In this document: piece by piece, positions 40,172 through 61,426 of the stretch
Numbering within the stretch: position 1 is the stretch's first letter
Layout of the letters: each line of letters begins with the position of its first letter
Notes under the pieces: model-generated
Told to the model about the DNA's origin: nothing
Databases searched by the model: none
The model's input: the letters and a program-made list of their open reading frames with translations, nothing else
From: Patescibacteria group bacterium
GTDB lineage: Bacteria; Patescibacteriota; Minisyncoccia; Phycocordibacterales; Phycocordibacteraceae
Length of the DNA: 64,000 nt
Reading direction: 5' to 3'
Assembly (NCBI GenBank): GCA_018971045.1
Contig: JAGWVF010000001.1
Coordinates: 11,480-75,479, forward strand
Program-made: the position numbers and the translations under genes

Positions 40172-40824
40172 AACCCAGCTCGCGTACCTTTTTAAATGGC
40201 GAACAGCCATACGCTTGGGACCTTCTCCAGCCCCGCGCTAAGGTGAGCCGACATCGAGGTGCCGAACTCCGCCGTCGCTATGGACGCTTGGGCGGAACTA
40301 GCCTGTTATCCCCAGGGTAACTTATATCCGTTAATCTCTGGCCGCTTCTAAGGCGTACCATCGGTTCACTATGCTCTGCTTTCGCATCTGCTCGGGATGT
40401 ACCCCTCGCAGTTAAGCTCTCTTTTGCCATTACACTATCGGCACGGTTTCCATTCGCGCCTAGAGAACCTTAATAGACTCCTCCGTTACTTTTTAGGAGG
40501 ATAGCGCCCCACCAAAACTACCCGCCACGCACGGTCCCCTGTTGGATCCCAACAGGGTTAGACACTGCAAAATTCAAGAGTGGTATTTCACTGACGGATC
40601 CACACCAGCCGAAACCGGTGCTTCAAATCCTCCCACCTATGCTACGCATGAATCCCGCAGTGCCAATACGAAGCTGTAGTAAAGCTCCTGGGGTCTTTTC
40701 GTCTAACTACAGGTATCCGGCATCTTCACCGGAACTGCATTTTCACCGAGCGAGTCCTCGAGACAGTTTCCCACTCATTACACCATTCGTGCACGTCGGA
40801 ACTTACCCGACAAGGAATTACGCT

Positions 40825-41502
40825 CTAGGCTCCTTTCAACCTTTGGACTCTATCTTCACCCTTTTCAGGGGATGGCGTTTGGTCTCTGGGGATTTCAAGA
40901 ATTGTGACGGCACTTTTCGATTCATCTTTTGAATCTTACGCGCAACCATTTGCATACCGCTCATTTCCTGATGGCGTTTATTCGCCACGAGCTCTACGAT
41001 CTCAGCAAAGAACTCGAAATCGTTTTGCTTTGCGGTTTTAAGTGGATGTCTTCGAAAAAACGGGATGATAATGTGATGCAGATCGCTCACTGAGCGTACG
41101 CAATAACGATACAAATATTCGTGATGATTATCGTATCGCTTATTCACAAATATATTCCCGCACTCGAAAAACGATTTGAACAATTCGAGCGCAGACAGAC
41201 TTTTCTTTCCCTGAGTTATTACAAACTCTGGGAATACTTGCCAGCCGAGCTTCGTTGTCGCATTGCGGAAGATACTAACGGAGAAGCATCCTTCTCCGTC
41301 GGTAAATCCGACAATCCACCCTTCAATTCCTGATCTTTCCTGCGTACGAGTCATACCTAAGGTACATTGTAACCTTAAATACTTCGCGTTTGCATATAGC
41401 CATGTGGATTAATCCGCAGATTACTCTGCGGCAAGGTAGCGTTTTGCTGTTTACCACTACAATCGTCCCAATCCTGTCGCGTTCGAGTAACTCGAACGCG
41501 AC
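40825..41502 (-). mobile_element. Group I intron in 23S at E. coli position ~1931 (CCTAAGGT | AGCG) carrying a LAGLIDADG ORF
   Basis: The exons rejoin to CCTAAGGTAGCGTAATTCCTTGTCGGGTAAGTTCCGAC. The 5' exon ends in U and the intron ends in G. IGS-like ACCTTAGG, R-like CCAGAGACCAAACG and S element AAGAUAGAGUCC are present. The ORF reads through R/S to 11 nt before the 3' splice site. Confidence 0.7.
40836..41354 (-). CDS. LAGLIDADG homing endonuclease (single-motif, I-CreI-like), intron-encoded
   Basis: 172 aa; GWIVGFTDGEGCFSV LAGLIDADG motif near the N-terminus; located inside the 23S intron. Confidence 0.85.
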   Translation of the reverse strand: MTRTQERSGIEGWIVGFTDGEGCFSVSIFRNATTKLGWQVFPEFVITQGKKSLSALELFKSFFECGNIFVNKRYDNHHEYLYRYCVRSVSDLHHIIIPFFRRHPLKTAKQNDFEFFAEIVELVANKRHQEMSGMQMVARKIQKMNRKVPSQFLKSPETKRHPLKRVKIESKG

Positions 41503-42344
41503 ACCTTAGGACGATTATAGTTATCGCCGACATTCACCGGGGCTTACACAGTCCAGCACGACACCGAAGTATCGTACCCACCGTGGTTAACCTTCCGGCA
41601 TTGGTCAGGTGTCACCCCCTATACTTCCTCTTACGAGTTTGCAGGGAGCTGTGTTTTTGGTAAACAGTTGACAGGAAAACTTTCACTGCGGCCCTCCATT
41701 CTTGCGAATAGAGGGCAGGCCTTATCGCTAACTTACGGCCGCTTTTTTGCCGAGTTCCTTGAGGACATCTTACTCGTTCGTCTTGGTCTGCTCGACCTGA
41801 TCACCTGTGTCGGTTTGCGGTACGGTCGTCTTGAGAGTTGATGCGTAGAAGGTTTTCTTGAAACCGCGCTTTGCGCTCTTTCTCCCCCCGAAGGAGGAAA
41901 TTGCGTCAGTGCTCGGGGTAATGCGTACCGGATTTCCCTAGTACGCGCCCTCGCGCTGCCGACCCAAATCCAATAATGGGCAGTGCATACAGCAGTCCGT
42001 CACTCCATTGCCTCTCAAAACGGTCAGGGAATATTAACCCTGTGTCCATCGGGTGCGGCTCTCGCCATCCCCTTAGGCCCGACTAACCCTCAGTTGATCA
42101 CCATAGCTGAGGAAACCTTGATCTTTCGACGTGCGGGGTTCTCACCCGCATTGTGGTTACTTGTACCGGCATTCTTACTTCTGTACGCTCCACCGCGGGT
42201 TATCCCTTCAGCTTCAGCGCGAACAGAACACTCTCCTACCGCTTGTATCTATCTAAATAGGTACAAACCCGCAATTTCGGCACGACATTTAACCCCGATC
42301 ATCTTCGGCGCAAGGACTCTCGATGAGTGAGCTGTTACGCTTTC

Positions 42345-42376
<32 letters not shown>

Positions 42377-42952
42377 TCACTGTTTATGAGTCCTCACTTC
42401 CTTGTGGATGTACTGAATGTCGATTTAGGGGCCTTAAGTGGCGATCAGGGCTCTTCCCCTCTCGTTCGATGGAGCTTCGCCCCCACCTACTAACTGCCGC
42501 CCGGGCCTCTGGTATTCGGAGTTTGATAGGAACCACGAGATTTCTCCCTGTTGGTCCCTTCCAGTGCTCTACCCCCAGAGGCACATATGGCGACGCCAGC
42601 CCAAAAGCTGTTTCGGAGAGAACCAGCTATTCCCAGATTCGATTAGCTTTTCACTCCTTACCACAAGTCATCCCAAGACGTTGAACGATCTACGGGTTCG
42701 GGCCTCCAGCTGTCTTTCGACAACCTTCACCCTGCTCATGGTAAGCTCATCTGGCTTCGGGTCGTATATATCCTACAATCGCGCTATTCACGCTCGGTTT
42801 CCCTTAAGCTCCGCCCCGGAAGGGCTTAGCTACGCAAGATATACACACTCGCCGGCTCATTCTTCAATAGGCATGCCGTGACGGAATGGCTTGCGCCATC
42901 CGCTCCGACCCCTTGTAAGTACACGGTTTCAGGTCTATTTCACTCCCCTCTC

Positions 42953-42986
<34 letters not shown>

Positions 42987-43666
42987 TCACTATCGGTCAT
43001 AGGACGTATTTAGCCTTACCGGTTAGTTCCGGCGGATTCAGTCGAGCTATTCGTGTCTCGACCTACTCAAGAATATGAACGAGAGTCGTCATGCATTTCA
43101 CATACGGGGCCATTACCCTCTGGGGCGCTGCTTCCCAACAGCTTCTGCTATACAGACGATTGGTAACTCTCTACGTACAAGTACGCTGTTCACATCTTAC
43201 AACCCCCCACTCCGAAGAGCGGGGTTTGGGCTTCTCCCTTTTCGCTCGCCGCTACTTGGGGTATCACGCGAGTCGCGTTCCATGCCGCCGAAGCATCGGC
43301 CGCACAGAACGCAACTCATATTGTTCTCTTTTCCTCCTGGTACTGAGATGTTTCACTTCCCAGGGTTCGCTTCACGCAAGCGTTACCTCGCGGATCAGAG
43401 TTCAAAACTCTGGGGTTTCCCCATTCGGAGATCTCCGGATCAAAGGCTACAAACCGCCTCCCCGAAGCTTTTCGCAGGTTAGTCGCGTCCTTCATAGCCG
43501 TCCTAGGCCAAGGCATCCACCGTGCACTCTTATTGTCTCTCGTGCAGAGACCTACATATCACGCGCACACTATATCCTCTCCCGCGCCGAAACCACTCCC
43601 GGCACGGGAAAGTTCATTACCAATGCATATTCGTGTATCAAAAATCAGTGTCCTCCGCTCGAAACG

Positions 43667-46013: not shown

Positions 46014-47477
46014 CTAACAGACGTGATGCTTTTCCATTATGGATTTTATTTCCTCATCTTCTGCGGCTTCTCTTCTCTTTTTACCTGCTTCTCCCAGATT
46101 TTTAAGTCCTTCATCATTAATTTTCAACAATTCTGATGTTCTTTTATCAAGATATTCATTAGTATTTTTTGAAGGCTCATCAAGAATCTCCTCAAGAAGC
46201 GCGTTGAGAGTCCAACCGATTCTTGGACCAGGTTCCACGTGGAACATCTCAATGATATGCCCGCCATTAGTCTTTAGCATGCCGACAGAGATAGGGTCGC
46301 GGAGGGCTTGTTCTACCATTGCCTTATATTTGCGGAATCGAAATGGCTGTTCCTTTGGCCTTCCGGTGCCGATTCGATCGCAAATGCGAAGATTGAGCAA
46401 ATCCCATATATTTTCCTCACCGACATTCTTTATCATTCGCCTTACCGCGGAGAGCGTAATCTGATCCGGATCAGAAAAAAACATATGCCAACGCACCAAT
46501 TTTACGACTTTATCAATCGTCTCTCGAGGGAAATGAAGGTATTCGAGAGCTTTCTTTGTTACACGTGAACCAACTACCTCATGGCCATGGAAAGTCCAAT
46601 CTCCCTTTTCGTCTGACCAACGGCGTGTCTCTGGTTTTGAAATGTCATGGAAAAGTCCGGCGAGGCGAATATCGAAATTCCAACCCTTATCGGCGGCATG
46701 TTGCATCGTTCTCATCAAGTGTTCAAAAACGTCATAGCTATGCGCCTGATTCTGTTCGATACCGACGCCTCGAATTAAATCAGACGATATGTCCTCGAGA
46801 ATACCGAGCTTTTGAGCGAAAACAAGCGCATTCATCGGCTGATTGGAATTAAGTATTCGTATGAGCTCGTCTCTGACTCTTTCACGTGAAACTTGGCTCA
46901 AATGCTTGCTATTCTCGCTGATCGCTTCTGCAGTCGCTCCATCAATACCGAATTCAAGTTCAGCAACGAGCCGTACCGCCCGAAGCATTCTCAGGGCATC
47001 TTCATTAAAGCGTTCAGAAGGATTCCTTACGGCGCGAATGAGTTTGTCCTTTATGTCCTTTTCCCCTTCGTAGGGGTCAACGATTTGTCCTTTATCTTCA
47101 TCGTACGCAATCGCGTTTATCGTAAAATCCCGCCGCGCGAGATCCTCGAGAAGGGACGTGCCGAAAGCGACCGAGTCGGGACGGCGCTTGTCAGAATATC
47201 CCGACTCGGTCCGGTAGGGAGTCACTTCAATAATAGCGAGGCACGAATTCTCGGAACCGGTCTTTACTCCCACTGTACCGTAATCGTTTTCATAAAAAGA
47301 ATCAGGAAATACGGACTGGATCTGATCCGGTGTGGCGTTCGTGGTAATGTCCCAATCCCTCGGTTCTCGCCCAATGATCAGATCGCGAACGCAACCGCCG
47401 ACCAGATACGCTTCGTACCCGGCGCTCCGGAGCGCCCGGCTGACCGTTCCCACCTCATTTGGAATTCGATATTCCAT
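46014..47477 (-). CDS. cca: CCA-adding enzyme / tRNA nucleotidyltransferase with HD domain
   Basis: AYLVGGCVRDLIIGREPRDWDITT (Pol-beta NT motif), ...RRDFTINAIAY..., HD domain HDISKPETRR...HGHEVVG. The start is taken at internal MEYRIPNEV. Confidence 0.85.
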   Translation of the reverse strand: MEYRIPNEVGTVSRALRSAGYEAYLVGGCVRDLIIGREPRDWDITTNATPDQIQSVFPDSFYENDYGTVGVKTGSENSCLAIIEVTPYRTESGYSDKRRPDSVAFGTSLLEDLARRDFTINAIAYDEDKGQIVDPYEGEKDIKDKLIRAVRNPSERFNEDALRMLRAVRLVAELEFGIDGATAEAISENSKHLSQVSRERVRDELIRILNSNQPMNALVFAQKLGILEDISSDLIRGVGIEQNQAHSYDVFEHLMRTMQHAADKGWNFDIRLAGLFHDISKPETRRWSDEKGDWTFHGHEVVGSRVTKKALEYLHFPRETIDKVVKLVRWHMFFSDPDQITLSAVRRMIKNVGEENIWDLLNLRICDRIGTGRPKEQPFRFRKYKAMVEQALRDPISVGMLKTNGGHIIEMFHVEPGPRIGWTLNALLEEILDEPSKNTNEYLDKRTSELLKINDEGLKNLGEAGKKRREAAEDEEIKSIMEKHHVC

Positions 47478-47537
47478 TGACGAATCGTAGCATGGCCAGA
47501 CTGGTTTTTTAGCTTTTGTGCCGTACACTCTAGCTAC

Positions 47538-47671: not shown

Positions 47672-48355
47672 ATGCGAAAAGACAAGGAGATAGCTTCAAA
47701 AATGCGAAAAGAGGGTAGAAGTTACGATGAGATCTATAAATCCCTGCATATTCCGAGAAGCACACTTTCTCATTGGTTTTCTAAAGAGGCGTGGTCTGAA
47801 GAAGTGCGGGCTCGAGTCTCTCAGGCTGCCGAGGAGAGGCGCGCCGTCCGTCTCGCTATCCTGAACAAAGTGCGCGGCGAGCATCTGGCGAGAGCCTACG
47901 AGACAGCCCGATCGGAAGCGGCGAGAGAGCTCGCCGTACTCAAATACGATCCGCTTTTCATTTCCGGCGTCATGCTCTATTGGGGAGAGGGGGCGAAAGA
48001 TCCGAAACAAGGGGTGAAATTTACTAATAGCGACCCTAAGATGGTGCGGTTTTATACGAGATTTCTTTTGAAATCATGCCGGATTCCCGTGGAGAAAATA
48101 AAAGCGCATGTATTGATTTCTGAAGATCACGAAGAGAAGACGACTCGGGCGTATTGGATAAAAATAACCGAATTGCCGAGAGAGAACTTCACCAAGAGTT
48201 CTCTTATTGCCGGCCGGCATGCGAAACGACGATTCGGGTGGGGGGTCTGTACCATTACCGTCTCTAGCACTTACTTCAAACAAAAGATTCTGGAGTGGAT
48301 AAGACTTCTCCCGGAGGAATTGCTCGAGGAGGCATATTATGAGAATATAGCGTGA
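47672..48355 (+). CDS. Stand-alone HTH (resolvase/transposase-type) plus LAGLIDADG-like domain protein
   Basis: N-terminal KEGRSYDEIYKSLHIPRSTLSHWF helix-turn-helix. C-terminal ...FISGVMLYWGEGAKDPKQGVKFTNSD... resembles a single LAGLIDADG motif followed by beta-rich K/R-containing segments. The gene stops 4 nt before tRNA-Gly. Confidence 0.45.
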   Translation: MRKDKEIASKMRKEGRSYDEIYKSLHIPRSTLSHWFSKEAWSEEVRARVSQAAEERRAVRLAILNKVRGEHLARAYETARSEAARELAVLKYDPLFISGVMLYWGEGAKDPKQGVKFTNSDPKMVRFYTRFLLKSCRIPVEKIKAHVLISEDHEEKTTRAYWIKITELPRENFTKSSLIAGRHAKRRFGWGVCTITVSSTYFKQKILEWIRLLPEELLEEAYYENIA

Positions 48356-50314: not shown

Positions 50315-50385
50315 GCGGGATTAGTTTAATGGCAGAACGTCAGTTTTCCAAACTGAGAGCAGGAGTTCGATTCTCCTATCCCGCA
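50315..50385 (+). tRNA. tRNA-Gly (anticodon TCC)
   Basis: GCGGGAT-TA-GTTT-AATGGCA-GAAC-G-TCAGT-TTTCCAA-ACTGA-GAGC-AGGAG-TTCGATT-CTCCT-ATCCCGC-A. Confidence 0.85.
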
Positions 50386-50455
50386 CACTGGTCAGAGACC
50401 GATTTTGAGACTGCGAGGCCTCAAGGTCAGTCCGCAACCACGAGCCCTATTCAAG

Positions 50456-50485
50456 CGAAAAGCGCGACCGAAATCGCGCTTTTCG
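50456..50485. terminator. Bidirectional terminator between tRNA-Gly(TCC) and the serine recombinase gene
   Basis: GAAAAGCGCGA-CCGAAA-TCGCGCTTTTC. Confidence 0.65.
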
Positions 50486-50486
50486 C

Positions 50487-51812
50487 TTAGTCAGCGAGCG
50501 TCACTACGCCATCATTCATGATCAACCGATCGCGCAGATGCTCCAATAACTCACGCTTCTCCTCCTTGGTCCCGTTCTTCAGAAGGTACTTCGCGTACTT
50601 CCGGATATCCATCTCCTTCGCCTTCAACGCTCCCTTTACGCCCTCCACCTCCGCACGGAGCGTGTTATACCGTGCCACCTCGCGGTCTATAAGGTGTCGA
50701 GCCCCGATCTCATCGAGCGACACCTTGTCTATGAGCCCCGCCAGCTGCCCAATAATCTTTTCTTCGCGCAAGTATGGATTCTTGCAGTTCGGGTCCTTGG
50801 CTCGCGAGCAGGAGTAGTAAATATGGGTGACAGGTTCGCCTGTCGCTAGGGTTTTGGTCTTTTCCTGAGCCGTGATGCCCGAGCCGCAATATCCGCAGGT
50901 GAGAAGCTTCGTAAAGCTCCACTCCTTGAACTTATGCTTCGGCCGATTCTCCTCGGCAATTTTCTCCTGCACTGCCTGAAAAAGTTCCTGTGTGATCAAG
51001 GGTTCGTGCTTGCCCGTATACCAACTTCCCGAACCACGCGGATACTCGAAGACGCCGCAGTAGAAGGGGTTCTTCAGCATCTTATAGAGCGCTGACAGAT
51101 TCATATCCTTGCCGAATTTGGAGACGAAGCGCACGTCCGACTTAAGCCATGCATGCACCTTCCGCCCGCTCCAGCGCTCGTTTCCGATCTTCTCGAATAT
51201 CCTCTTTACGATAGGAACGCGAATCGGGTCGATTACAACTTCGCATCTGTGATCCTTGCGACCATCATTCAAATATCCGGTCGGTGCAATGCCAGGCCAC
51301 AGTCCCATCTCCACTCGTGCCTTCAACCCTCGTTTCACGTTGATGCGCTTATTATCGTTCTCGAGCTTCGCCTGCGACCCGAGAATCATCAGGAGGAACT
51401 TTTCATTCGGGTTGTTCGTGAAGCGCTGACCGTATGTTCGGATATCAATCAAATGCTTGCTGTCCATCAAGTCGACGATGCGTCCTAGATCTCCGGCATT
51501 TCTTGAAATGCGGTCCGGTGCCCACGTCAATATCCCGTTGAATTTCTGGTTCTTTAGTTCCTCGACTATTTCGTTAAATACCGGCCGCGCTCCGGCCTCT
51601 TTTGCCGAATGCGATTCGCGCTTTACTTCGACTATCTCTAGCTTCTCCTTCTCTGCGAGTGCGAGCATCTCCTTGATCTGGCTCTCGATGGAGAGCACCT
51701 GCTGTTCCTCGCTTTCCGTACTCTTTCTTGCATATAGGCAGTATCGGATCGGTACCGCCTCCAAGAGAGGAGGAGCCGCTCCGAAACCGCCCTGAATCGT
51801 TGCTGCTTCCAT
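50487..51812 (-). CDS. Large serine recombinase (resolvase/invertase catalytic domain + recombinase domain + zinc ribbon + coiled coil)
   Basis: [14 protein letters not shown] (catalytic Ser), ...[18 protein letters not shown]..., zinc ribbon [13 protein letters not shown]...THIYYSCS, C-terminal coiled coil. Confidence 0.85.
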
Positions 51813-51935
51813 TGGTTATTGCCGTTAGTCCTAACAGCCCAATGGATGACGCAACCCCTCATGGGAGTCCAGACCCCTCTACCGGTTATTTCCTAGACAT
51901 ATGCCCGTAAAACTGCACCATGCTACGATTGCCGC

Positions 51936-52931
51936 ATGTCGCAAGATTTTGCATTTATTCCCGCTAAGCTGAAAGAAGGCGATCTCGCTCGAGTTATTTC
52001 CTTCGGCCTAAGCCTGAAGGGCGCGTCCTTGCCTCAGCGGGAAATCTGCAACGCAAATCTTGCACGGCTTGGAATCAGGGTTTCGTTCGGAAAGCATGTC
52101 GAAGATAGCGACGAGTTCGATACTTCACCGATAGCGGCAAGAATAGAGGATTTGCATTCAACGTTGCAAGATTCGGAAGTAAAGCTGATTTTATCTGGAC
52201 TAGGCGGCATGAATGCCGCGCAAATTTTACGTTCTGTTGATTGGAAGTTGCTATCAGAGAACCCGAAGATCTTTTGCGGATTTTCTGATATGGCCGCCCT
52301 CGTCAACGCAATTCACGCTAAGACAGGGCTCATAACCTATTACGGCCCATTCTATGGAACCTTCGGAATGCAGAAGGGTTTTGAATATATGCTGGACTCG
52401 TTCGATAAGTGCCTTTTTCATTCGGAACCCTACCTGGTCGAACAGTCTCCCATCTGGAGTGATGACGCTTGGTGGCTTGATCAAGAAAACAGAACCTTCC
52501 ACGAAAATCCTGGCCCGCTAGTCTTTACCGAAGGATATGCCGAGGGACGATTGATTGGAGGCCACTTAACCTCGTTCGCAACACTTTTTGGAACCGAGTT
52601 CTTCCCAGATTTGTCTGACTCTATCCTGATGGTCGAGGAAAATAGCGAAATACGCCCGCGCTCGTTTGACCGACTGCTGCAAAGCCTGCTGTACCAAAAG
52701 GGATTCGAGAAGGTAAAAGCCATTTTAATTGGGCGGTTTACCCGAGCAACAGGAATCACCAATGAAATTCTTGTCACGATACTCAAGAATTATCCGGAGC
52801 TTTCGCGAGTCCCTGTAGTGGCGAATCTGAGCTTCGGGCATACCTATCCCCAATTTACTTTTCCGGTAGGAGGGATCGGTCGAATAGAGGCTAAGAGCGG
52901 AACGGCGATTCTTGAGATTAAGGAGCGCTGA
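51936..52931 (+). CDS. LD-carboxypeptidase / MccF-like peptidase S66
   Basis: 331 aa. FCGFSDMAAL is the catalytic Ser motif of S66. Also ...VANLSFGHTYPQFTFPVG (catalytic His region) and IGGHL. Confidence 0.75.
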   Translation: MSQDFAFIPAKLKEGDLARVISFGLSLKGASLPQREICNANLARLGIRVSFGKHVEDSDEFDTSPIAARIEDLHSTLQDSEVKLILSGLGGMNAAQILRSVDWKLLSENPKIFCGFSDMAALVNAIHAKTGLITYYGPFYGTFGMQKGFEYMLDSFDKCLFHSEPYLVEQSPIWSDDAWWLDQENRTFHENPGPLVFTEGYAEGRLIGGHLTSFATLFGTEFFPDLSDSILMVEENSEIRPRSFDRLLQSLLYQKGFEKVKAILIGRFTRATGITNEILVTILKNYPELSRVPVVANLSFGHTYPQFTFPVGGIGRIEAKSGTAILEIKER

Positions 52932-52952
52932 ACTCTGCACGAACCGCGGATG

Positions 52953-54059
52953 TTAGATATCAAGTTTCAAAACCTCTTTTAATTCACTTACGCTTGCGTA
53001 TTTAGACTCATCGAGATCAGAAATATTCTGGACATGCCAGGAGTTCGGATTCTTAAAGTGAACCGCCTTAACGCCAGCTTCGAGAGCTGGCTCTATGTCC
53101 GAGCGGAGGCTGTTCCCGACCACGATAATCTCCCCAGAGCTGAATGGAAGATCGCCCTTCAGTTTCTGTAAACTCGTCGTGCTCTTCGATTTGACGACAC
53201 ATAAGGCATGAAAATGCTCGGCTAAGTTAGAACGAGCCACTTTCTCGAACTGGATGCCAAGAGGTCCTTGTGTATAGAGAACTAGGCCGTCGCCGCGCTT
53301 TTCTAGCTCCGTCAGGATTTTCACGACATCAGGAACCAGTGCCTCCGGCTGATTCTTGAGAGTCGGTACGATAGACTCAAACAGTTTTGTGGGACGAGGT
53401 ATGTCCGCCTCTGTGGTGAGGGTCTTGTATACAGTTTCCAGAGATTTGAGGAAGCCGTAGGCACCGAAGCCAATCTCCTGAATCGTTTTCTCCTCGGTTT
53501 CATCTATTAATTGACGGACCTGCTCCTCGGTCGTATTTTTCAGGTACGGACGGCAATGCTCTATGAAAGCGTCGACGATTTTCGCGTATGCAATATTATC
53601 CTCCCAAAGGGTGTCGTCGCCATCGAATACCCACGTGCGATTAAAGGGCCCAAGTGCTGAAGGTGTCTTGCAAAAGTAGTATTCGCCTTCTTCCGGAAAA
53701 AGAATCGGGATTCGATGATCTCCCTCCGCGAATTTGCTGAATAAATAGGAAAAGTTTTGCGGAGTAATCTCTCCGGGAAGCGGTTCCCAGACTACCGAAA
53801 ACCCAGCTTCCTCGATTGCTTTCAGTTTTCGAGGATTGTTGCTGAGCAAAGCAATATTCTTTATTCCCAGGTCGCGCAAGATTTTGAAAGCAAGCGGATA
53901 CATCCGGCCGTCGACCTCGAAATTGAGTTTCTCATAAGCACCATAGGTGCTCACGCATTGCGATTGCATCGTGTACATGCCGAGATACTTAGCAAAAATC
54001 CCCGCGCCGCGCCCTTCTTGGAAGATGTGAATGAGGACGCCATTTTGTTTTCTGAGCAC
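52953..54059 (-). CDS. C-terminal part of a GTP cyclohydrolase II-like domain fused to a HAD-superfamily phosphatase
   Basis: IHIFQEGRGAGIFAKYLGMYTMQ...ILRDLGIKNIALLSNNPRKLKAIEEAGFSVV matches the RibA C-terminal half. WVFDGDDTLW is HAD motif I; VVGNSLRSDIEPALEAGVKAVHF is HAD motif IV. Confidence 0.6.
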   Translation of the reverse strand: MLRKQNGVLIHIFQEGRGAGIFAKYLGMYTMQSQCVSTYGAYEKLNFEVDGRMYPLAFKILRDLGIKNIALLSNNPRKLKAIEEAGFSVVWEPLPGEITPQNFSYLFSKFAEGDHRIPILFPEEGEYYFCKTPSALGPFNRTWVFDGDDTLWEDNIAYAKIVDAFIEHCRPYLKNTTEEQVRQLIDETEEKTIQEIGFGAYGFLKSLETVYKTLTTEADIPRPTKLFESIVPTLKNQPEALVPDVVKILTELEKRGDGLVLYTQGPLGIQFEKVARSNLAEHFHALCVVKSKSTTSLQKLKGDLPFSSGEIIVVGNSLRSDIEPALEAGVKAVHFKNPNSWHVQNISDLDESKYASVSELKEVLKLDI

Positions 54060-54077
54060 GTCGATTGAACGCAGTAG

Positions 54078-54344
54078 CTAACTTCGGCAGTCGCAATCGA
54101 AGCTTCCCAATATATCGCTGTTCGCGCACGACGAGTGCAGCTGTATCGGAACCGTTCGTGACGTATCGAACGAGTCAGGGTCCGTGAATAGAGCGACCAA
54201 TGCAGTCTGCTTATCATCAGAATAAATGCAAGAAAAAGTCACGCCTGTATTTGTAAAATGCTTTACGAAGGGAGTCTTCTTCGTGTCATCGTCGACTCGG
54301 ATTGTGGGGTCGTAGTCGCTTTCTTTTGGTGCGTGCAGGTCCAT
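54078..54344 (-). pseudogene. N-terminal zinc-binding part of GTP cyclohydrolase II, separated from the downstream part only by an in-frame TAG
   Basis: ...IQLHSSCANSDILGSFDCDCRS-TAG-LLRSIDVLRKQNGVLIHIFQEGRG..., same frame and colinear with RibA (HSECLTGD...SLRCDCGFQLE...QEGRGIGL). Confidence 0.5.
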
Positions 54345-54356
54345 AAGTTTTTATGA

Positions 54357-57155
54357 TTAATTTATACGCAAATTGAATCGCACGGGTCCGGTTGAAAGTT
54401 CGACATTATGTTTCCCGTCGTCTGAATGCTCCACCCGAACGCTATCTTTCGTTGAGAATCCTTCATTCTTGCGCGCTTCGGCCACTGCGCGCGCAAATGC
54501 ACGCTCGTCTCCCTCGGCGATGAGTTCCTGTGTCAAACGTGTATCAAGCGAAAGGGAATCCGCGTGCATTATCACATTTTTTACGTTTACTTCATCTGCA
54601 AGCACGGTCGCCAATTCTTCTGGAATCGTTCTTGGAATTGAGAACGAGGGAAGCGGCTGGCGCACCACAATGCCGGCTTTCTGTCGGAGCATAAGCGCCT
54701 CGCTCGCAAGCGTGCGAACATCTGCCATAGCTTCGATTAACTCCGTATTTGCCTCATGCCTATCCGGCCACTCTGCCAGATGCACACTTTCTGGCTCGCC
54801 CTCTTCCCGTACTGAACGGTATATCTCGTCAGAGACAAACGGCATGACGGGTGCGACAAGCAGGGCGGTATGTTTGAGAACGAAACGCAATGTGGCGCGC
54901 GCGGCATCTGCATCCGGGCCATCTTCCTTGAAACGGTCGCGTGAGCGGCGCACGTACCATGCAGAAAGGTCATCAATAAAGGCCGAAAGTGGGCGTGTAG
55001 CCGAGTCGAGAGCATAATGCTCGTATCCTTCCGTCACCTCTTTAATAGTCTTATCCAAACGCGCAACTATCCAGCGGTCCAAAACATGAGTACTCATTCT
55101 GTTCGCCGTAATTCCCGTATCGTGAAGCGTATAGAAGGAAAGCACATTCCGGAGCCGACCAATGTTCTTTTTCGCAATCTCATCAACGCCCTTCTCAGAA
55201 AAAGCGAGGTCTTCAGCAACGACAACCGATGAGGATAGCAGATAAAAACGCATCGCGTCCGCCCCGTATTTCTCGACTACTTCCATAGGATCGGGATAGT
55301 TTTTGAGGCGCTTCGACATCTTCTTTCCGTCCTCAGCAAGAACGATGCCGTTCACGATGACGTTTTCGAACGCGTGCTTGTTGAATAGCGCTCCCGCGAG
55401 TACATGAAGATAGTAAAACCATGCGCGGGTCTGATCCTGTCCTTCGCCAATAAATTGTGCCGGAAACGCAGAATCAAATTCTTGCTTATCCTCAAAAGGA
55501 TAGTGACGCGAGGCATACGGCATTGAGCCGGAATCGAACCAAGTATCGAGAACGTCCGGTATGCGCCGCATTACACCACCGCAAGAACACGGAACGACGA
55601 TTTCATCCAAGACGTGCTTATGCAAGTCATCAATGCGCTCTCCGCTCGCTTCCTCCAACTCGGCTACGCTCCCGAAGACCTTACGCGCCTTGCATTCTTC
55701 GCATGTCCACATCGGAATAACGCTTGCCCAAAAGCGCTGGCGCGAGATAGACCAGTCGCGAGCGCCTTCGAGCCACTTACCGAAGCGCCCTTCCTTGATA
55801 TGTGCGGGCGACCACGCCACATCCTTTGCCGTCGCAAGTAAGATGTCTTTGATCTTCTCGATGGCGATGAACCATGATGAAGTCGCGTAGTTCAGGAGCG
55901 GCGTGTCGCACCGCCAGCAATGCGGATACGCATGGGCGATGTTCTCTTTTGAGAAGAAGTTGTCGTTATCCTGTAGATGCTTAAGAACGGCAATGTCAGT
56001 CGCGAGCCTGACCCGATCATCGTCAGACTTCGGCTTTACTTCCATGCCCGCAAAAGCGAGGACTTCTGGCTTCATCGTGCCGTCCTCGTTTACATGCTGT
56101 ACGAAGGGCAAATGCTCTCTTTTGAGGAGTTCCCAGTCGTCGGCGCCGAACGCCGGTGCCTCGTGTGCAATGCCGGTACCGGTATCCGCAGTGATAAAGT
56201 CTGCCGCATATACCTTCCATCCGTTTTCGCGATTCTTGAGGTTCGCATCGGAAGCGTAATAGTCGAAAAGCGGCTCGTACTCGAGTCCGACAAGTTGCCG
56301 CCCTGAAAATTCCAGTCCTGAATTCGCATCACTCAGCCCGAGAGCCGCCATCCGCTCCTTTGCGACCACATAGTATTTTCCGTTCTCGTATTGAACCGCG
56401 CGATAGGTGATGTCGGGACCGACGGCCAACGCCACGTTTCCAGGCAGCGTCCACGGCGTAGTCGTCCATGCAAGTAAATGGACATCCTGACCGATACCTA
56501 ACTCGGACAGCGCGGCAGTGGACTTTGCTTTAAACTTCACAGTGACCGCGATATCCTTCACGTCCTTGTATCCTTCCGACACCTCCGTCTGCGAGAGCGT
56601 CGTTTCGCAGCGCGTGCAGATATGCATGGAGCGATAATCCTCATATACGAGTCCCTTGTCGTAGATCTGCTTGAAGACCCACCAAACGCTTTCCATGAAC
56701 GACTTGTCCATCGTTCGATAGGCATTCTTCATATCAGCCCAGCGACCGATGCGAGGAATGATCTTCTCCCACTCGTTCACATAGGTGAGCACCTGTTCGC
56801 GACAGCGCTCATTGAACTTTGCGACTCCGTACTCTTTTATGTCTTTCTTATGCTTGAAGCCAAGCTCCTTCTCGACAATATTCTCGATCGGAAGTCCGTG
56901 GCAGTCCCAGCCCCACACACGGGGGACGTGATAGCCGCGCATAGTCTTATAGCGAGGTATGGCATCCTTGATCACGCTCGCCACGATATGGCCGTAGTGC
57001 GGGAGCCCTGTCGCAAATGGCGGGCCGTCGTAGAATGCAAATTCGCCTTTTGGGGCGCTTTTCTTGAGCGATTTTTCGAAGATTTTATTTCCTTCCCAAA
57101 ACTCAAGGATTTCCTCCTCTCGTTTTGCCGCGTCTGATTTTCCCATTTCCTCCAT
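54357..57155 (-). CDS. ileS: Isoleucyl-tRNA synthetase
   Basis: PHYGHIVASV (HIGH), WTTTPWTLPGN, KMSKRLKNYPDP (KMSKS), CWRCDTPL zinc knuckle. The start is taken at MEEMGKSD, 4 nt after the TauD stop; the track ORF 54357..57317 overlaps TauD. Confidence 0.9.
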   Translation of the reverse strand: MEEMGKSDAAKREEEILEFWEGNKIFEKSLKKSAPKGEFAFYDGPPFATGLPHYGHIVASVIKDAIPRYKTMRGYHVPRVWGWDCHGLPIENIVEKELGFKHKKDIKEYGVAKFNERCREQVLTYVNEWEKIIPRIGRWADMKNAYRTMDKSFMESVWWVFKQIYDKGLVYEDYRSMHICTRCETTLSQTEVSEGYKDVKDIAVTVKFKAKSTAALSELGIGQDVHLLAWTTTPWTLPGNVALAVGPDITYRAVQYENGKYYVVAKERMAALGLSDANSGLEFSGRQLVGLEYEPLFDYYASDANLKNRENGWKVYAADFITADTGTGIAHEAPAFGADDWELLKREHLPFVQHVNEDGTMKPEVLAFAGMEVKPKSDDDRVRLATDIAVLKHLQDNDNFFSKENIAHAYPHCWRCDTPLLNYATSSWFIAIEKIKDILLATAKDVAWSPAHIKEGRFGKWLEGARDWSISRQRFWASVIPMWTCEECKARKVFGSVAELEEASGERIDDLHKHVLDEIVVPCSCGGVMRRIPDVLDTWFDSGSMPYASRHYPFEDKQEFDSAFPAQFIGEGQDQTRAWFYYLHVLAGALFNKHAFENVIVNGIVLAEDGKKMSKRLKNYPDPMEVVEKYGADAMRFYLLSSSVVVAEDLAFSEKGVDEIAKKNIGRLRNVLSFYTLHDTGITANRMSTHVLDRWIVARLDKTIKEVTEGYEHYALDSATRPLSAFIDDLSAWYVRRSRDRFKEDGPDADAARATLRFVLKHTALLVAPVMPFVSDEIYRSVREEGEPESVHLAEWPDRHEANTELIEAMADVRTLASEALMLRQKAGIVVRQPLPSFSIPRTIPEELATVLADEVNVKNVIMHADSLSLDTRLTQELIAEGDERAFARAVAEARKNEGFSTKDSVRVEHSDDGKHNVELSTGPVRFNLRIN

Positions 57156-57159
57156 ACGG

Positions 57160-57996
57160 CTATTCGTTTGGGGCGAAACCAATACAAGCCTGCTCTTCGC
57201 TCGACGAGATACCGTCAAACCAGAGACGATGCAATTTTCTCGGATCATCGGACTCAAAAGCCGTTCTTCCATGGAGGACGGTAAAGTTATCGGTGAGCAG
57301 CACTTGTCCTGCTTCAAGCCGGAAACTTACTAGATTCTTTTCCTCTGAAAGAAAATCATGCACAAGGCCGACCGCTCTGCGTACATTTGAATTTTCTGGG
57401 GAGCGCACAGCTTCGTCCGCTCTGTAGCGAATCGCGAGGCGATTATTTAAATATGTTCTAAAAACCGCCCCTGAGAACGATTTCGCTGCGCGATTAATGA
57501 AAAGAGCGTCTTCGCGATAAAGCGACTCCAAGGCTTCTTTATCCGTCGATGAAAGCCAGTCGTGCAATTTCTTCCCGCTTGCCAGCTGAGTAATACCGCC
57601 TTGGCGTGCCGGTATCTCGCATCGCAGAGCAACAATCGGAGGAGGGTTTACATCGTATGAGCCATCGGTGTGAAATGTATAAGCTCGAGAAGAAATGCCG
57701 GGGTAAACGGAAGATTCGTCGATTACGGCAACTTCGGTAATGTCGTCATCGTCAGATCGATCATGGCTCATTGTTTTGCCAAAAAGTTCCTTGAAACACA
57801 GCAGTTGATTTCTAGGCGGTTCTTCCTTTTCAAATTGAACAATGGCAACTCCGTATGTATCGAGAAGGCTGATGATTGAGTGTGCCGATCCAACGATTTC
57901 CTCTGACGAATGTACTGACACTAAAAGCGCCTCGGGAGCAAGTTCGGAGCCGAATGCCTGTTTAGGATTTTTGTCGCAATTTCCGGAGGATTCCAT
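57160..57996 (-). CDS. TauD/TfdA-family Fe(II)/2-oxoglutarate dioxygenase
   Basis: FHTDGSY (H-x-D), VLHGRTAF (distal His), R near the C-terminus. The start is uncertain: the track ORF extends to 58149 and overlaps the upstream gene. Confidence 0.7.
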   Translation of the reverse strand: MESSGNCDKNPKQAFGSELAPEALLVSVHSSEEIVGSAHSIISLLDTYGVAIVQFEKEEPPRNQLLCFKELFGKTMSHDRSDDDDITEVAVIDESSVYPGISSRAYTFHTDGSYDVNPPPIVALRCEIPARQGGITQLASGKKLHDWLSSTDKEALESLYREDALFINRAAKSFSGAVFRTYLNNRLAIRYRADEAVRSPENSNVRRAVGLVHDFLSEEKNLVSFRLEAGQVLLTDNFTVLHGRTAFESDDPRKLHRLWFDGISSSEEQACIGFAPNE

Positions 57997-58031
57997 AATA
58001 TTTTGGGCCGAAGCCCTGGCATCTAGTTTAT

Positions 58032-58862
58032 TCAAATTTTCTTGAACGAAATAACATCGCCAACATTGATGCCGAGCTCCCGAGCGCCCAATTTGCGTGC
58101 CTGCCCCAGTTCCCAAAGGCCAAATGAGCTGCCAGGGAAGAACGCCCAATCTCCGGTTTCAAGAGACATGAGACGTGGCTCATATACCGCATTAATCTTG
58201 TGATCCCTAATCATTACCTCGTAACGATCTCCTGGAGCAACTGGTCCGATATCTCCGGTAAATTTCATCATTCCAAAATTATCAATATGCACGATAGTTC
58301 CCGGCTTGAGATTAAGCCGAACGATCCCGTTCGGGTCGATCGCTTCCCCGAGTTCTGAAAGCGGCGTACCGCGAGCTGCTGCCGCGGCGACTTTTGCAGT
58401 TACATACTTTCCAGCGAACGAAACGAATTGCCCGACATTGTATTTCGTAAGGTCGTAGAGCTCCGCGCATCCGAAATCGCGGGTAAGCCAATCAAAACTA
58501 CCCATGTTCCTGCCGATAAAAACTATGTTGCGCTCCTTCGTTCTTCCGATTACATTCATCGGCCGCACTTTTTCGGCATTGATCGTAGTCATCAGAACGC
58601 TATTTTCCGGGTACGAATCAGCCATGAGCCGAACGGCGAAGTTGGTGTTAATTATGGAAAATGCTGGGGAAATGGGGGTAATGGGGGCAACTACGACATC
58701 CGGTATATTCTCGACTTCATGCGCGAGTACCGCCCAAAGCTCATTGGCCGCGATGTCTACACACTCTGTGATGTTTACCAAGTATTTCTTCACGCTCGAA
58801 ATATAACACGAAATAGCAGAAAAGCTGAGTAATTCCCGTTCCCTTATCGAGATACGAACCAT
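58032..58862 (-). CDS. DUF62 / SAM hydroxide adenosyltransferase-like protein (fluorinase-chlorinase fold), divergent N-domain
   Basis: KVAAAAARGTPLSELGEAIDPNGIVRL and IVHIDNFGMMKFTGDI resemble the SalL/FlA C-domain ([25 protein letters not shown]; RIDRxFGN). IGRNMGSFDWL resembles the VGPNNGLLSFAL motif. The N-terminal D-x-G SAM-binding motif is not recognisable. Confidence 0.45.
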   Translation of the reverse strand: MVRISIRERELLSFSAISCYISSVKKYLVNITECVDIAANELWAVLAHEVENIPDVVVAPITPISPAFSIINTNFAVRLMADSYPENSVLMTTINAEKVRPMNVIGRTKERNIVFIGRNMGSFDWLTRDFGCAELYDLTKYNVGQFVSFAGKYVTAKVAAAAARGTPLSELGEAIDPNGIVRLNLKPGTIVHIDNFGMMKFTGDIGPVAPGDRYEVMIRDHKINAVYEPRLMSLETGDWAFFPGSSFGLWELGQARKLGARELGINVGDVISFKKI

Positions 58863-58922
58863 AGATATCGTACCGCCCGAGCATCTTGCTATATATTCTT
58901 CGTGTGATATAATAAAAAATGA

Positions 58923-59888
58923 GCAATAGAGATTTGTTGCCGCGAGAAAGAGGCCCTATATCTGAATCCCTGGTATGAGGTCGTCGCGAATGATAACGAG
59001 GCGATGGTCATATCGCTGTACGCGAAGGGCCTCACGACCCGCGATATCGCAAGCTATATGCGCAGTCACTATGGCATGGAATTGTCCCAGCCTGCCGTCT
59101 CCGGCATTACCGACAAAGTGTACCCGCTCGTGAAGGAATGGCTCTCGCGTCCTTTGGCCGTGTCCTATCCGATCGTCTATCTCGACGGCCTTCACTTCAA
59201 GGTGCGGGACGCCGGGAAGATAGTGTCGAAGATCGCGTACATCGTCCTTGGCATCAATCCGTACGGGAATAAGGAAGTGCTCGGCATCTGGATCAGCGAT
59301 TCCGAAGGAGCGAAGTTCTGGATGCACGTCCTGAACGACCTGAAGAATCGCGGCGTCGACGACATCCTTATCGCGTGCGTCGACGGCCTCAAGGGATTCC
59401 CGGATGCGGTCAAGTCCATCTATCCGCAAACGGAAGTGCAGGTCTGCATCGCACACCAGATACGGAACACCATCAAATTCCTGCCGATCAAGGATCGCGA
59501 AGGATTCTGCCGCGACTTGCGGGAGGTGTACACCGCCTCGACCGAGAGCGCCGGCCTCGACGCGCTCCACACGATGATGCAGAAATGGCCGCAGTATCGC
59601 GGATACTTGAAAAGCTGGGAAGACCGCTGGGCCGAACTCACGCCCTTCTTCGAGTATCCGAATCCTATACGCCGCATGGTGTATACCACCAACATGATCG
59701 AGAATCTGAACCGGCAGTTCCGTAAGGTTACGAAAACGACCACGATCTTCCCGCATGACGAATCGCTCATGAAGCTCCTCTGGCTCGCCCAGAACGATCT
59801 TGCACAGGGAAGACTCGTCGCGCTTAGGAATTGGAGCGAGGTCATGGCTCAGCTCTCGATCCTCTTCGGTGAGCGTGTGCAGTTCTAA
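58923..59888 (+). mobile_element. 5'-truncated IS256-family (mutator-type) transposase remnant
   Basis: ...MVISLYAKGLTTRDIASYM...YLDGLHFKVRD...ILIACVDGLKGFPDAVKSIYPQTEVQVCIAHQIRN...RYLKSWEDRW...TTNMIENLNRQFRKVTK match IS256 Tnp residues ~100-400. The N-terminal ~100 aa are absent and the upstream frame is closed by a stop at 58920. Confidence 0.8.
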
Positions 59889-59923
59889 CCATTAATTCCC
59901 GTCGCTGAAGCGGAAGCCGCCCC

Positions 59924-59960
59924 ACGCACGCCGCAGCCGTCGCTGCGGCGTGCGTGTTTC
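59924..59960 (+). terminator. Palindromic terminator after the IS256 remnant
   Basis: CACGCACGCCGCAGC-CGTC-GCTGCGGCGTGCGTG, a perfect 15-bp stem, then TTT. Confidence 0.6.
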
Positions 59961-60280
59961 AGATAGATACGATGTCAGTACAAGTCAAGGTGCGCGGCCA
60001 AGAAATTGGCATTTGTTGGCATTTTCAGTCCGCAACCGCGAGGGTCGCTCAAAAGACTCGCCGAATCGCCAAAATGTCCTTGAACTGCTTGCTGGAATGC
60101 CGAAAACGAGACGCGAACCCGATACGCGGTCCCGTGTCTCATTTGTCTCATTCCGTGCATGACCACGAGGCCTCGAATGCAACCCGGCCACCCTCGCCAA
60201 ACGGCCCTTACGGGGCCTCGCTTTACATGGTTCAGAACCGCGAGGGGGCACAAATTCTCGGAGAGGAGTACCATGTCTCT

Positions 60281-61426
60281 ATGGAGCCCCTCGCCGCGCG
60301 GATACGACCCGATAAGATTGCCGACGTTGTCGGGCAAGAACGCCTCGTGGGAGAGGGGAGGCCGCTTCGCGCCGCGATCGAAAAAGGGCATCTCTTCTCT
60401 TTCATTCTCTGGGGCCCGCCCGGAACCGGAAAGACGACCATTGCGCGTATCTATGCTCGCGCCCAGGGCGCCGAACTCTTCGAACTTTCGGCCGTCTCGG
60501 CGGGGAAGGAGGATATTAAGAAGATCGTGGCTCCGCCGCGCGACAGGCAGAGACCGCTCGGCGAGCGCCCTAAGATTTTGTTCCTCGACGAGATCCATCG
60601 CTTTAATAAAAGCCAGCAGGACTTTCTCCTGCCCTACGTCGAGAGCGGAGAGCTCACCCTTATCGGCGCGACGACTGAGAATCCATCGTTCGAGGTTATT
60701 CCCGCACTCCTCTCGCGCTCGCGCGTTTTTGTGCTCGAGCCCCTTTCTCGCGAAGCGCTCCGCGCGATCGTAAGGCGCGCCAAGATAAAGATGGGAAGCG
60801 GCGCGCTTGATTGGCTCATAGGCTATGCTAACGGCGACGCGCGTAAGGCGCTCGGGATGGCGGAGGGCGCTCTCTCGCTCTATGGCGCCGTAACCGTGGA
60901 AACCTTAACCAATGCGCTCGAGTCGCCGCATCTGCGCTATGACAAAAAAGGCGAGGAACATTACGATACCGTAAGCGCGTTTATTAAGAGCCTGCGCGCG
61001 TCGCAGGCCGATGCGGCTCTTTATTATCTCGCGCGCATGCTTGAAGCTGGAGAAGATCCGCTCTTTATCGCGCGGCGGATGGTCGTTTTCGCGAGCGAGG
61101 ATGTCGGCCTCGCCCAGCCGACCGCGCTCGTGGTCGCTAACGCCGTCTTTCGAGCCTGCGAGACGATCGGGTACCCGGAGTGCGCGATTAATCTCGCGCA
61201 TGGCGCCGCGTATCTCGCAAGAGCGACAAAAGACCGCTCTTCCTATGATGCGCTCCGCGCGGCGCAGGCCGACGTGCAAGCCCTCGGGAATCTCCCGATC
61301 CCGAAGAAAATACGCAATCCCGTAACGAAGCTCATGAAAGAGCTTAACTATGGCGAGGGATATGAGAAATACGATCCCGAATCGTATCTTCCCGACAAGC
61401 TCAAGAAAAAGAAATACTTGAAATAA
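60281..61426 (+). CDS. rarA: Replication-associated recombination protein A (AAA+ ATPase RarA/MgsA)
   Basis: [22 protein letters not shown]..., [34 protein letters not shown]. The track ORF from 59954 runs through the upstream terminator. Confidence 0.85.

Follow-up and report, generated by a model that had tools for sequence, protein, structure and literature searches.

An island between tRNA-Gly(TCC) and rarA in a Paceibacteria-type genome, probably inserted by its own large serine recombinase

Large serine recombinases (LSRs) are enzymes that one typically meets in temperate phages and in integrative conjugative elements. We describe here a 9,865-bp island, at positions 50,388-60,252, that lies between a tRNA-Gly(TCC) gene and rarA in a window of 64,000 nt (the whole stretch of DNA that was analysed, to which coordinates refer unless another locus is named). 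The source genome is of the candidate phyla radiation (CPR, or Patescibacteria) and of Paceibacteria type: the relatives retrieved with rarA were metagenome-assembled genomes of Parcubacteria, Paceibacterota and Kaiserbacteria. The island was probably inserted by its own LSR, acting site-specifically at the very 3' end of the tRNA gene. Its features and those of its flanks are collected in Table 1; loci of other genomes are designated by L numbers.

Several described systems invite comparison. The staphylococcal cassette chromosome (SCC) elements, such as SCCmec with its Ccr recombinases, have direct repeats of 15-18 bp near their ends. They are, like the island, driven by LSRs and inserted at the very 3' terminus of a housekeeping gene that is conserved and is not inactivated; the repeats near the ends, the variable cargo carried on a constant backbone of recombinase and ends, and the existence of tandem or composite arrays (here in L165) are further points in common. 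CcrB is also the best-scoring named NCBIfam model for the island LSR, but with 111 bits against a cut-off of 900, so that the LSR is not a Ccr orthologue. The island differs from SCC in that it targets a tRNA gene and not rlmH, has a single recombinase of 441 aa and a structured right end of 250 bp, and resides in a CPR host.

The Islander/TIGER tRNA islands and the tycheposons of Prochlorococcus likewise occupy tRNA sites, with an integrase gene at the edge and variable adaptive or defence cargo. They differ in that they almost always use tyrosine integrases, which leave a displaced 3' fragment of the tRNA as a direct repeat (an LSR is carried by 27 of 937 tycheposons), whereas the island has a serine recombinase, no Phage_integrase domain detectable with Pfam, and GCACA as the only sequence shared by its junctions. 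Targets in t(m)RNA genes are used by 4.9% of the elements with serine integrases (S-Int) versus 44.5% of those with tyrosine integrases (Y-Int), and their use by S-Int was described as unreported and needing proof (PMC7192596); an earlier note on this DNA was thus right in saying that serine recombinases are the rarer of the two at tRNA sites. The serine integrases of phages (SPbeta SprA/YokA, A118, TP901-1), finally, share with the island LSR the architecture of catalytic, recombinase and zinc-ribbon domains. The LSR differs from them by its low identity (given below) and stands at the small end of their size range; the island, for its part, is devoid of phage genes. No description of this recombinase family, of CPR serine recombinases of this kind, or of the gene cassette carried by the island was found in the literature, and the island family is previously undescribed.

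Table 1. Position of the island features and of the flanking genes in the window
Feature	Position	Strand	Basis or remark
tRNA-Gly(TCC), integration target	50315..50386	+	ARAGORN, Rfam
GCACA junction core (5 bp), left copy	50383..50387	+	last 3 nt of the tRNA and 2 nt
Island left end, about 62 bp	50388..50452	+	conserved beside tRNA-Gly in recombinase-bearing loci
Small hairpin and T-run (GGTCAGAGACC GATTTT)	50390-50406	+	part of left end
18-bp repeat, copy 1, TCAGTCCGCAACCACGAG	50427-50444	+	left end
Terminator-like hairpin, perfect 15-bp inverted repeat, 6-nt loop	50453..50488	.	repeat search
Large serine recombinase (LSR), 441 aa, intact	50487..51812	-	Pfam, PHROG, PDB
S66 peptidase, MccF-like clade, divergent last cassette gene	51936..52931	+	Pfam Peptidase_S66, S66C
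GTP cyclohydrolase II/HAD hydrolase fusion (GCHII/HAD), one in-frame TAG at 54078-54080	52953..54344	-	Pfam, sequence
Isoleucyl-tRNA synthetase (IleRS) type 2, 932 aa, intact, MBU6214291.1	54357..57155	-	TIGR00392
TauD-family Fe(II)/2-oxoglutarate dioxygenase, 278 aa	57160..57996	-	Pfam TauD 1.4e-29
Divergent DUF62 protein (SAM hydroxide adenosyltransferase/halogenase family), 253 aa, MBU6214293.1	58032..58793	-	SAM_HAT_N 8e-8
IS256-family transposase remnant	58965..59888	+	NF033543 329 bits, cut-off 150; Pfam Transposase_mut 1.5e-79
Perfect 15-bp palindrome, 4-nt loop, 3' of transposase remnant	59923..59956	.	repeat search
Island right-end module, 250 bp	60003..60252	+	71% identical to L087 7167-7417
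Tandem 9-10-mer, TTGGCATTTG x2	60006-60024	+	right-end module
18-bp repeat, copy 2	60025-60042	+	right-end module
GTGTCTCATTTGTCTCATT	60134-60152	+	right-end module
Terminal arm GTTCAGAACCGCGAGGGGGCACA (23 nt)	60230-60252	+	degenerate third repeat copy and right GCACA
Right copy of GCACA core	60248..60252	+	within terminal arm
rarA (MgsA), native right flank	60281..61426	+	Pfam MgsA_C, AAA, AAA_assoc_2

Junctions, empty site and conserved ends

The limits of the island were read against L009, a relative whose RarA, Cca and Rny proteins are respectively 75%, 77% and 80% identical to those of the window. The gene order of L009 is cca - tRNA-Arg - tRNA-Gly(GCC) - yraN - tRNA-Pro - protease - tRNA-Gly(TCC) - rarA - hup - rny, and only ~25 bp, with no insert, separate tRNA-Gly(TCC) from rarA. 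This empty site, CCCGCACAAAACACG..., reads CCCGCA-CAAAACACGAAAGG-GGAGTACCATG. In the window the left junction is CCCGCACA/CTGGTCAG and the right one GGGGGCACA/AATTCTCGGAGA-GGAGTACCATG, where the slash marks the limit of the island and AATTCTC comes first after it on the right. The spacing from GCA to GGAGTACCATG is 14 nt in L009 and at the right junction of the window alike. From the L009 site and this equal spacing, the insert is 50,388-60,252, with a copy of GCACA at each junction.

Both flanks are those of the host. The tRNA-Gly(TCC) gene is native since the same cluster, Arg-Gly(GCC)-Pro-Gly(TCC), is present in the relatives L007-L009, all of them without recombinase; it is intact beside the island, and its 3' part GTTCGATTCTCCTATCCCGCACA (50365-50387) would constitute the left arm of attB. 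On the right, RarA is 75-78% identical to its counterparts in relatives, and the order rarA-hup-rny is conserved. Neither long direct repeats nor a displaced 3' fragment of the tRNA were found at the distal end of the island, which is consistent with the action of a serine, not a tyrosine, recombinase, since enzymes of the former class are not expected to leave long att-type repeats of the tRNA. In L005, which is the closest relative when rarA is compared, the 3' part of tRNA-Gly recurs as an inverted 18-nt copy (L005 89-106) ~50 nt downstream of the tRNA.

The base composition of the segment deviates from that of the surrounding DNA. The core DNA of the window (1-39 kb and beyond 60.25 kb) has 58% GC, with 0.62-0.78 GC at third codon positions (GC3), whereas the cargo at 51.8-58.95 kb has 49.9% GC, ~8 points less, and a GC3 of 0.41-0.60. 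Compared with 37 core windows of 3 kb, the 3-kb windows over the cargo gave z-scores of -3.2 to -4.8 for GC and of -2.5 to -5.9 for tetranucleotide usage, and both scores were back at baseline by 59-60 kb. GC3 was host-like in the recombinase (0.67) and in the IS256 remnant (0.78). The earlier note had put the contrast at 45-52% versus 60-65% GC: the drop is significant, but the two figures are closer to 50% and 58%. It had also proposed that the locus is a horizontally acquired integrative element set between tRNA-Gly(TCC) and the core genes rarA, hup and rny, and this proposal is borne out by the L009 site, from which the segment is absent, by the junction repeats, the deviant composition and the identity of the recombinase. 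As to the repeats themselves, the short core and an 18-bp subterminal repeat were detected, but not the long att-type repeats.

The ends of the island are conserved in other genomes. The left end is found next to tRNA-Gly in L087, L089, L091, L092, L095, L165 and L173, all recombinase carriers, and is absent from L006-L009, the relatives devoid of recombinase. Besides the small hairpin and the first copy of the 18-bp repeat it holds GAGGCCTC, and its first bases, A[GC][CT][GA]GTCAG.G.CC, are common to islands located at tRNA-Arg(TCT) and tRNA-Val(CAC). The terminator-like hairpin that comes next, correctly noticed before as a strong terminator behind the tRNA, overlaps the stop codon of the recombinase gene and can be read at the equivalent position in L092, L095, L089 and L165.

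The 18-bp repeat is TCAGTCCGCAACCRCGAG, which can be written TCAGTCCGCAACC[A/G]CGAG. Its two copies in the island agree at 17 of 18 positions (E = 1e-4 by blastn-short between the two junction stretches) and L087 and L092 each keep it at either end; for these reasons it is not attributed to chance. It lies ~40 bp from tRNA-Gly in L087, L089, L092, L095, L165 and L173 and has a second, far-end copy in L087, L092 and L165. The far-end copy is preceded by a tandem 9-10-mer, the sequence of which varies between islands (TTGGCATTTG, GTTCGNTTT or TGTAACATT, each present twice) while the architecture is kept. The terminal arm GTTCAGAACCGCGAGGGGGCACA resembles the tRNA arm GTTCGATTCTCCTATCCCGCACA in that both have GTTC at -23 and the GCACA core. 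When the right ends of the window, L092, L087 and L165 were aligned, homology stopped at ...GGGGGCAC(A) in four out of four; the DNA beyond that point is unrelated: the window goes on with rarA, L165 with the left end of another unit, and L092 and L087 with other DNA. The right boundary at 60,252 is thus confirmed independently of the empty site. Rfam recognised no RNA family in the island ends, and RNAalifold found almost no covariation support for the right-end module (covariation term of -0.75 kcal/mol).

L165 (1-5010) is a tandem array of island ends in which the 18-bp repeat occurs four times; it also has a truncated recombinase gene and an internal joint between a right end and a left end, ...GGGGCACA/GCGGTCAG..., which looks like an attP-type sequence. 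A crossover in the 18-bp repeat itself, giving an island of 50,445-60,042, was considered and set aside because the right-end homology of four loci ends at 60,252, because homology with the L009 empty site resumes at that same point, and because of the unit junction GGGGCACA/GCGGTCAG of L165. The 18-bp and tandem repeats are candidate accessory sites, to which the recombinase or a regulator may bind.

The recombinase, its family and the integration model

The LSR gave Pfam matches to Resolvase (PF00239, 6.9e-22), Recombinase (PF07508, 1.8e-14) and Zn_ribbon_recom (PF13408, 5.7e-9). Its translation shows YARKS and DRISR motifs, with the nucleophilic serine and the Arg/Asp/Arg residues, and a zinc ribbon of visible CxxC...Cx7C pattern followed by ~95 residues. 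It matched the PHROG 95 integrase (2e-68) and, in the PDB, SPbeta YokA/SprA (2.7e-13) as well as the A118 integrase. Judged by these domains and motifs, it is a bona fide large serine recombinase, as had been recognised earlier from the 441-aa reading frame. More than 120 homologues, with 60-92% identity and all ~437-445 aa long, were found in Paceibacteria; identity to any phage or plasmid LSR was at most 30%, and a scan of 2.9 million viral contigs of IMG/VR revealed no relative.

In a survey of 80 metagenomic loci of the family, 40 could be evaluated downstream and 50 upstream of the LSR gene. A tRNA gene followed the LSR stop codon at a distance of no more than 1.5 kb in 17 of the 40, always in convergent orientation (17/17), for a chance expectation of ~12% from tRNA density; none was present upstream (0/50). 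The proportion was 9 of 11 for LSRs at least 62% identical to that of the island. The tRNA gene adjoined by LSRs at least 80% identical is a tRNA-Gly (TCC, GCC or CCC), and other clades adjoin Arg, Ile, Leu, Val, Met, Gln or Lys tRNAs. In L008 (2347-3993), another large serine recombinase, of 548 aa and 28% identical, lies directly against the 3' end of tRNA-Pro, a gene of the same cluster of tRNAs, and heads a 7-kb insert with Bro-N and SPFH genes.

In L087, L089/L090, L091, L092 and L173, the LSR gene has the same chromosomal position as in the window, its 3' end being directed toward the tRNA block near cca. The cargo changes from one locus to another. L092 (1932-9890; LSR 94% identical) has the same ends as the window island and encodes an adenosine deaminase, a NUDIX protein, a dehydroquinate synthase (DHQS)-like cyclase, a carbamoyltransferase, a nucleotidyltransferase and a HIT protein, a set suggestive of a small pathway for nucleosides or cyclitols. 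L089 (LSR 84%) contains a diversity-generating retroelement (RVT_1 and bAvd; L089/L090 6288-7698) together with AAA_5 and CobT_C proteins; L091 (LSR 80%) contains restriction-modification methylases, a zeta toxin and a full-length IS256, and L087 (LSR 85%) proteins without known function. On this comparison the islands form a family, specific to Paceibacteria, in which recombinase and ends are shared and the cargo is swapped.

A decayed prophage, or a conjugative or mobilisable element stripped of its structural or transfer genes, would account for the PHROG 95 match of the LSR, and L091 has a ParB-methylase gene and a faint terminase-like match. Such an origin appears most improbable. The PHROG profiles matched the integrase and the transposase alone on the island; no capsid, tail, terminase, relaxase or type IV secretion gene was found in it or in L087, L089 and L092; the islands are all small (5-10 kb); and the remoteness of the LSR from those of phages and plasmids, noted above, argues the same way.

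The LSR has a history distinct from that of its surroundings. Between the window and L173 it is 93% identical at the protein level and 62% identical at 4-fold degenerate sites, whereas cassette and host genes show just 21-39% identity at such sites; across loci, LSR identity does not follow cca identity. This pattern of divergence indicates strong purifying selection on the LSR and horizontal exchange of the backbone, and on that measure the LSR has moved more recently than the genes around it. It also bears on the possibility that the tRNA-Gly/rarA interval is a native hypervariable region, with a resident, domesticated recombinase (an invertase or resolvase), and that the short interval of L009 is due to a deletion. 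That the interval does vary in the absence of the recombinase is clear from L006 (9 kb, with TrmB regulators and metabolic genes), L007 (6.3 kb) and L005 (1.5 kb), and a high conservation of the LSR at one chromosomal position in several genomes, with cassette genes diverged nearly to host-gene level, is what a resident gene would display. A native region would leave several facts without explanation, namely end modules that stop at identical nucleotides beside unrelated DNA, units in tandem array in L165, related LSR clades at many different tRNAs, a synonymous divergence of the LSR far below that of host and cassette genes, and the deviant composition of the segment. We consider it unlikely.

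Integration by the LSR can be modelled as follows. In the circular form, the right arm (...GTTCAGAACCGCGAGGGGGCACA) would meet the left end (CTGGTCAGAGACC...) via GCACA and so form attP, with a predicted circular junction ...CAGAACCGCGAGGGGGCACACTGGTCAGAGACCGATT...; attB would be made of the T-arm and acceptor 3' strand of tRNA-Gly plus the trailer. LSR dimers would synapse attP with attB and cleave at a central dinucleotide placed in or beside GCACA, and rotation and religation would then take place. The tRNA gene would thereby gain a trailer and a terminator encoded by the island (the small hairpin with its T-run), and the recombinase gene would stand at the edge of the tRNA gene and convergent with it. 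The empty site predicted after excision is ...TCTCCTATCCCGCACAAATTCTCGGAGAGGAG.... After the acquisition, an IS256 element would have inserted and been truncated, and the nonsense mutation of GCHII/HAD would have followed. The island may be mobile at present.

Several observations weigh against an integrative island of this kind. The site was occupied in all five Logan contigs of the population (SRR32006837, -38, -39, -45, -46), neither an empty site of the same species nor a circular junction was seen in these assemblies, and a look-up with the protease for an empty site of the same population returned occupied sites only. The putative attB is conserved in one half, the trailer side varying between genomes, and no recombination directionality (excision) factor was recognised, another difference from the phage systems. 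The 18-bp repeats are set back from the ends by 40 bp and 210 bp and could mark an inner recombination site. Low GC is not confined to the island: the segment at 39-48.5 kb (an intron-bearing 23S rRNA gene, a secreted protein and cca) is also GC-poor, and cca (46014-47528, minus strand), a native gene that is syntenic in all relatives, has 47% GC and a GC3 of 0.47 amid a 58% GC genome, its L009 orthologue having 54.5% GC; replacement of cca by recombination with a lower-GC relative may be the cause. Lastly, the cassette proteins are about as diverged as host genes (65-81% identity for IleRS, 63-76% for cca). Because of this host-like divergence and of the lineage-typical IleRS, a close relative, or even this very genome, may be the source of the cargo, which would then not be foreign in the conventional sense.

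The cargo cassette and the IS256 remnant

The order DUF62 - TauD - IleRS - GCHII/HAD - S66, the last gene being on the opposite strand, is kept in the window and in at least three further contexts. L173 has a window-like layout, with tRNA-Gly(TCC) and the closely similar LSR described above, in a host whose cca is just 63% identical. L172, in the genome of the relative L007, has the cassette without LSR, beside dnaK-dnaJ and an ABC transporter gene, and in L175-L177 it is again without LSR, beside mazEF. The S66 peptidase gene is kept at the same position in L172, L173 and L175. That this peptidase belongs to the MccF-like clade, as first proposed, is apparent from its PDB matches: 3e-89 to 4e5s (BA_5613) and 5e-37 to MccF, versus ~1e-20 to LdcA-type chains.

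The part transcribed from the minus strand had been presented as a five-ORF operon. Its genes were rightly named (ileS, a dioxygenase, a DUF62-like enzyme and the GCHII/HAD fusion), but they are four, the fusion being split by its in-frame TAG. This codon stands where intact homologues of 460-472 aa and Escherichia coli RibA have a glutamine in the alignment (CAG-to-TAG); the gene is otherwise intact, with the Zn-binding cysteines and the EGR/NNP motifs conserved, and in at least one independent Logan assembly (L001) an ORF is called whose start is just past the TAG. Intactness elsewhere and the agreement of L001 point to a recent inactivation.

The TIGR00392 ileS model matched the IleRS with 881 bits (cut-off of 621). 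An origin in a distant phylum was rejected for this enzyme, which is 70-74% identical to Paceibacteria IleRS. In a neighbour-joining tree the cassette-linked enzymes (window, P0009, P0017, P0019 and P0034) fall into one clade of 17 members, which P0006 joins through its cluster member P0307 (on a 16,857-bp contig), and the argS-linked P0002 and P0003 fall outside it. In other relatives ileS lies in an argS-ileS-recO context. Neither argS nor recO was found in the 64-kb window. The neighbourhood of ileS, earlier noted as atypical, is not a collection of random foreign genes: since the cassette is conserved in other genomes it is a recurrent module, with an IleRS of Paceibacteria type. Among the 120 best matches listed, no second IleRS from the source organism was found.

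The DUF62 protein matched the SalL chlorinase (5.5e-5) and is rare, with 64 clusters in 5.8 billion proteins, mostly from Patescibacteria; a few relatives with 51-55% identity occur in Kitasatospora and Kutzneria. The TauD-family protein gave weak PDB matches to 7n7v, FrbJ and TmpA. In the cassettes its gene is always directly downstream of the DUF62 gene, and in Kutzneria it is at most one gene away. On the chromosome of Kutzneria buriramensis (L174, 7880-10774), we observed the order TauD - major facilitator superfamily (MFS) transporter - DUF62, beside genes of fatty-acid/polyketide type, with a DUF62 protein 52% identical to the CPR one. This suggests that TauD and DUF62 make up a two-enzyme module common to several phyla.

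The GC content of the cassette equals that of the host in L172 and L173, and is 8 points under it in the window. Taking composition and divergence together, the cassette is an old Paceibacteria module that changes location, and in the genome of the window it looks like a comparatively recent acquisition.

The cargo recalls the MccF peptidases of microcin C immunity and the antibiotic gene clusters with a resistant synthetase copy (mupM, sbz), in that the gene of an MccF-clade S66 peptidase stands beside that of an aminoacyl-tRNA synthetase, along with putative nucleoside- or nucleotide-acting enzymes (DUF62, GCHII/HAD); it has neither an Mcc-type adenylyltransferase nor a precursor peptide. 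It could be imagined that the cassette is a production-and-immunity module for a nucleoside antibiotic that mimics isoleucyl-adenylate, although this is rather improbable. The DUF62 enzyme would then make a 5'-substituted 5'-deoxyadenosine from S-adenosylmethionine (SAM), the TauD-family enzyme and GCHII/HAD would modify the product or provide another nucleoside, the IleRS would serve as a resistant copy of the target, and the MccF-like peptidase would hydrolyse the aminoacyl-nucleoside bond; islands with tRNA-targeting serine recombinases would carry the module and exchange it among ultra-small CPR bacteria. In a weaker variant, the island would hold the sole ileS of the cell and for that reason could not be lost. 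No known biosynthetic cluster with the gene set of the cassette was found in the literature, and the PADLOC models of defence systems gave no match for the cargo or the recombinase.

The IS256 remnant has lost codons 1-74 together with the left end of the insertion sequence (IS): tblastn with the full-length L091 transposase recovered residues 75-381. The earlier note had seen the remnant, its 5' truncation and the palindrome behind it, all of which are present, and had taken them as closing the island; they lie inside it, its end being ~290 bp further, at 60,252. The remnant abuts the cassette, IS256 relatives recur in the related islands L091, L104 and L159, and the cassette is also found in contexts without LSR (L172, L175-L177), which would be compatible with an entry of the cassette through IS256 transposition or recombination, the LSR being uninvolved and the remnant marking the real mobile unit. 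This route is most unlikely for the island as a whole. There is a single, truncated copy; neither a second IS256 copy, nor matching terminal inverted repeats, nor IS repeats flanking the cassette were found; and the limits of the segment coincide with the end modules of the LSR family, not with the IS. A GC3 that is host-like, unlike that of the cargo, suggests that the IS came later and locally. Most likely, then, IS256 inserted locally into the LSR-borne island and was truncated by a deletion, which may have removed further cargo, and IS256 may have been the route by which the cassette entered the island backbone.

Other genes of the window and significance of the islands

Outside the island, the 23S rRNA gene (39592-43543, minus strand) is ~1 kb longer than the Rfam model. 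The gene contains a LAGLIDADG_1 homing-endonuclease ORF (40836-41354; Pfam 4e-24), and a sub-threshold match to a group I intron (E = 9e-7) lies within the gene at 39895-40108; rRNA genes with introns are typical of CPR bacteria. The tRNA that adjoins the 5S rRNA gene (39286-39360, minus strand) is read as a tRNA-Gly with the unusual anticodon ACC, in an anticodon loop CUACCAG, and its Rfam tRNA score is just 43.5 bits. A 227-aa ORF without Pfam match (47672-48355, plus strand) is located between tRNA-Arg and tRNA-Gly(GCC); it has homologues in the same place in L025 (52% identity) and L087 (47%) and may be a free-standing gene of homing-endonuclease type.

The prevailing view has been that tRNA genes are not targets of serine integrases. 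From the above comparisons, a whole clade of compact (~440 aa) serine recombinases emerges in Paceibacteria, convergent with tRNA genes at their 3' ends and with a specificity that shifts by clade. Its members amount to a naturally occurring series of small serine integrases whose target half-sites, derived from tRNAs, are short and highly conserved and, the ends being well defined, attP and attB can be reconstructed for direct testing. The IleRS cassette would be one of two things, a mobile housekeeping gene of an unusual sort or a module, as yet undescribed, centred on an aminoacyl-tRNA synthetase. Little is known of the mobile elements of CPR bacteria, and the islands would provide a concrete mechanism of gene flux in this group.

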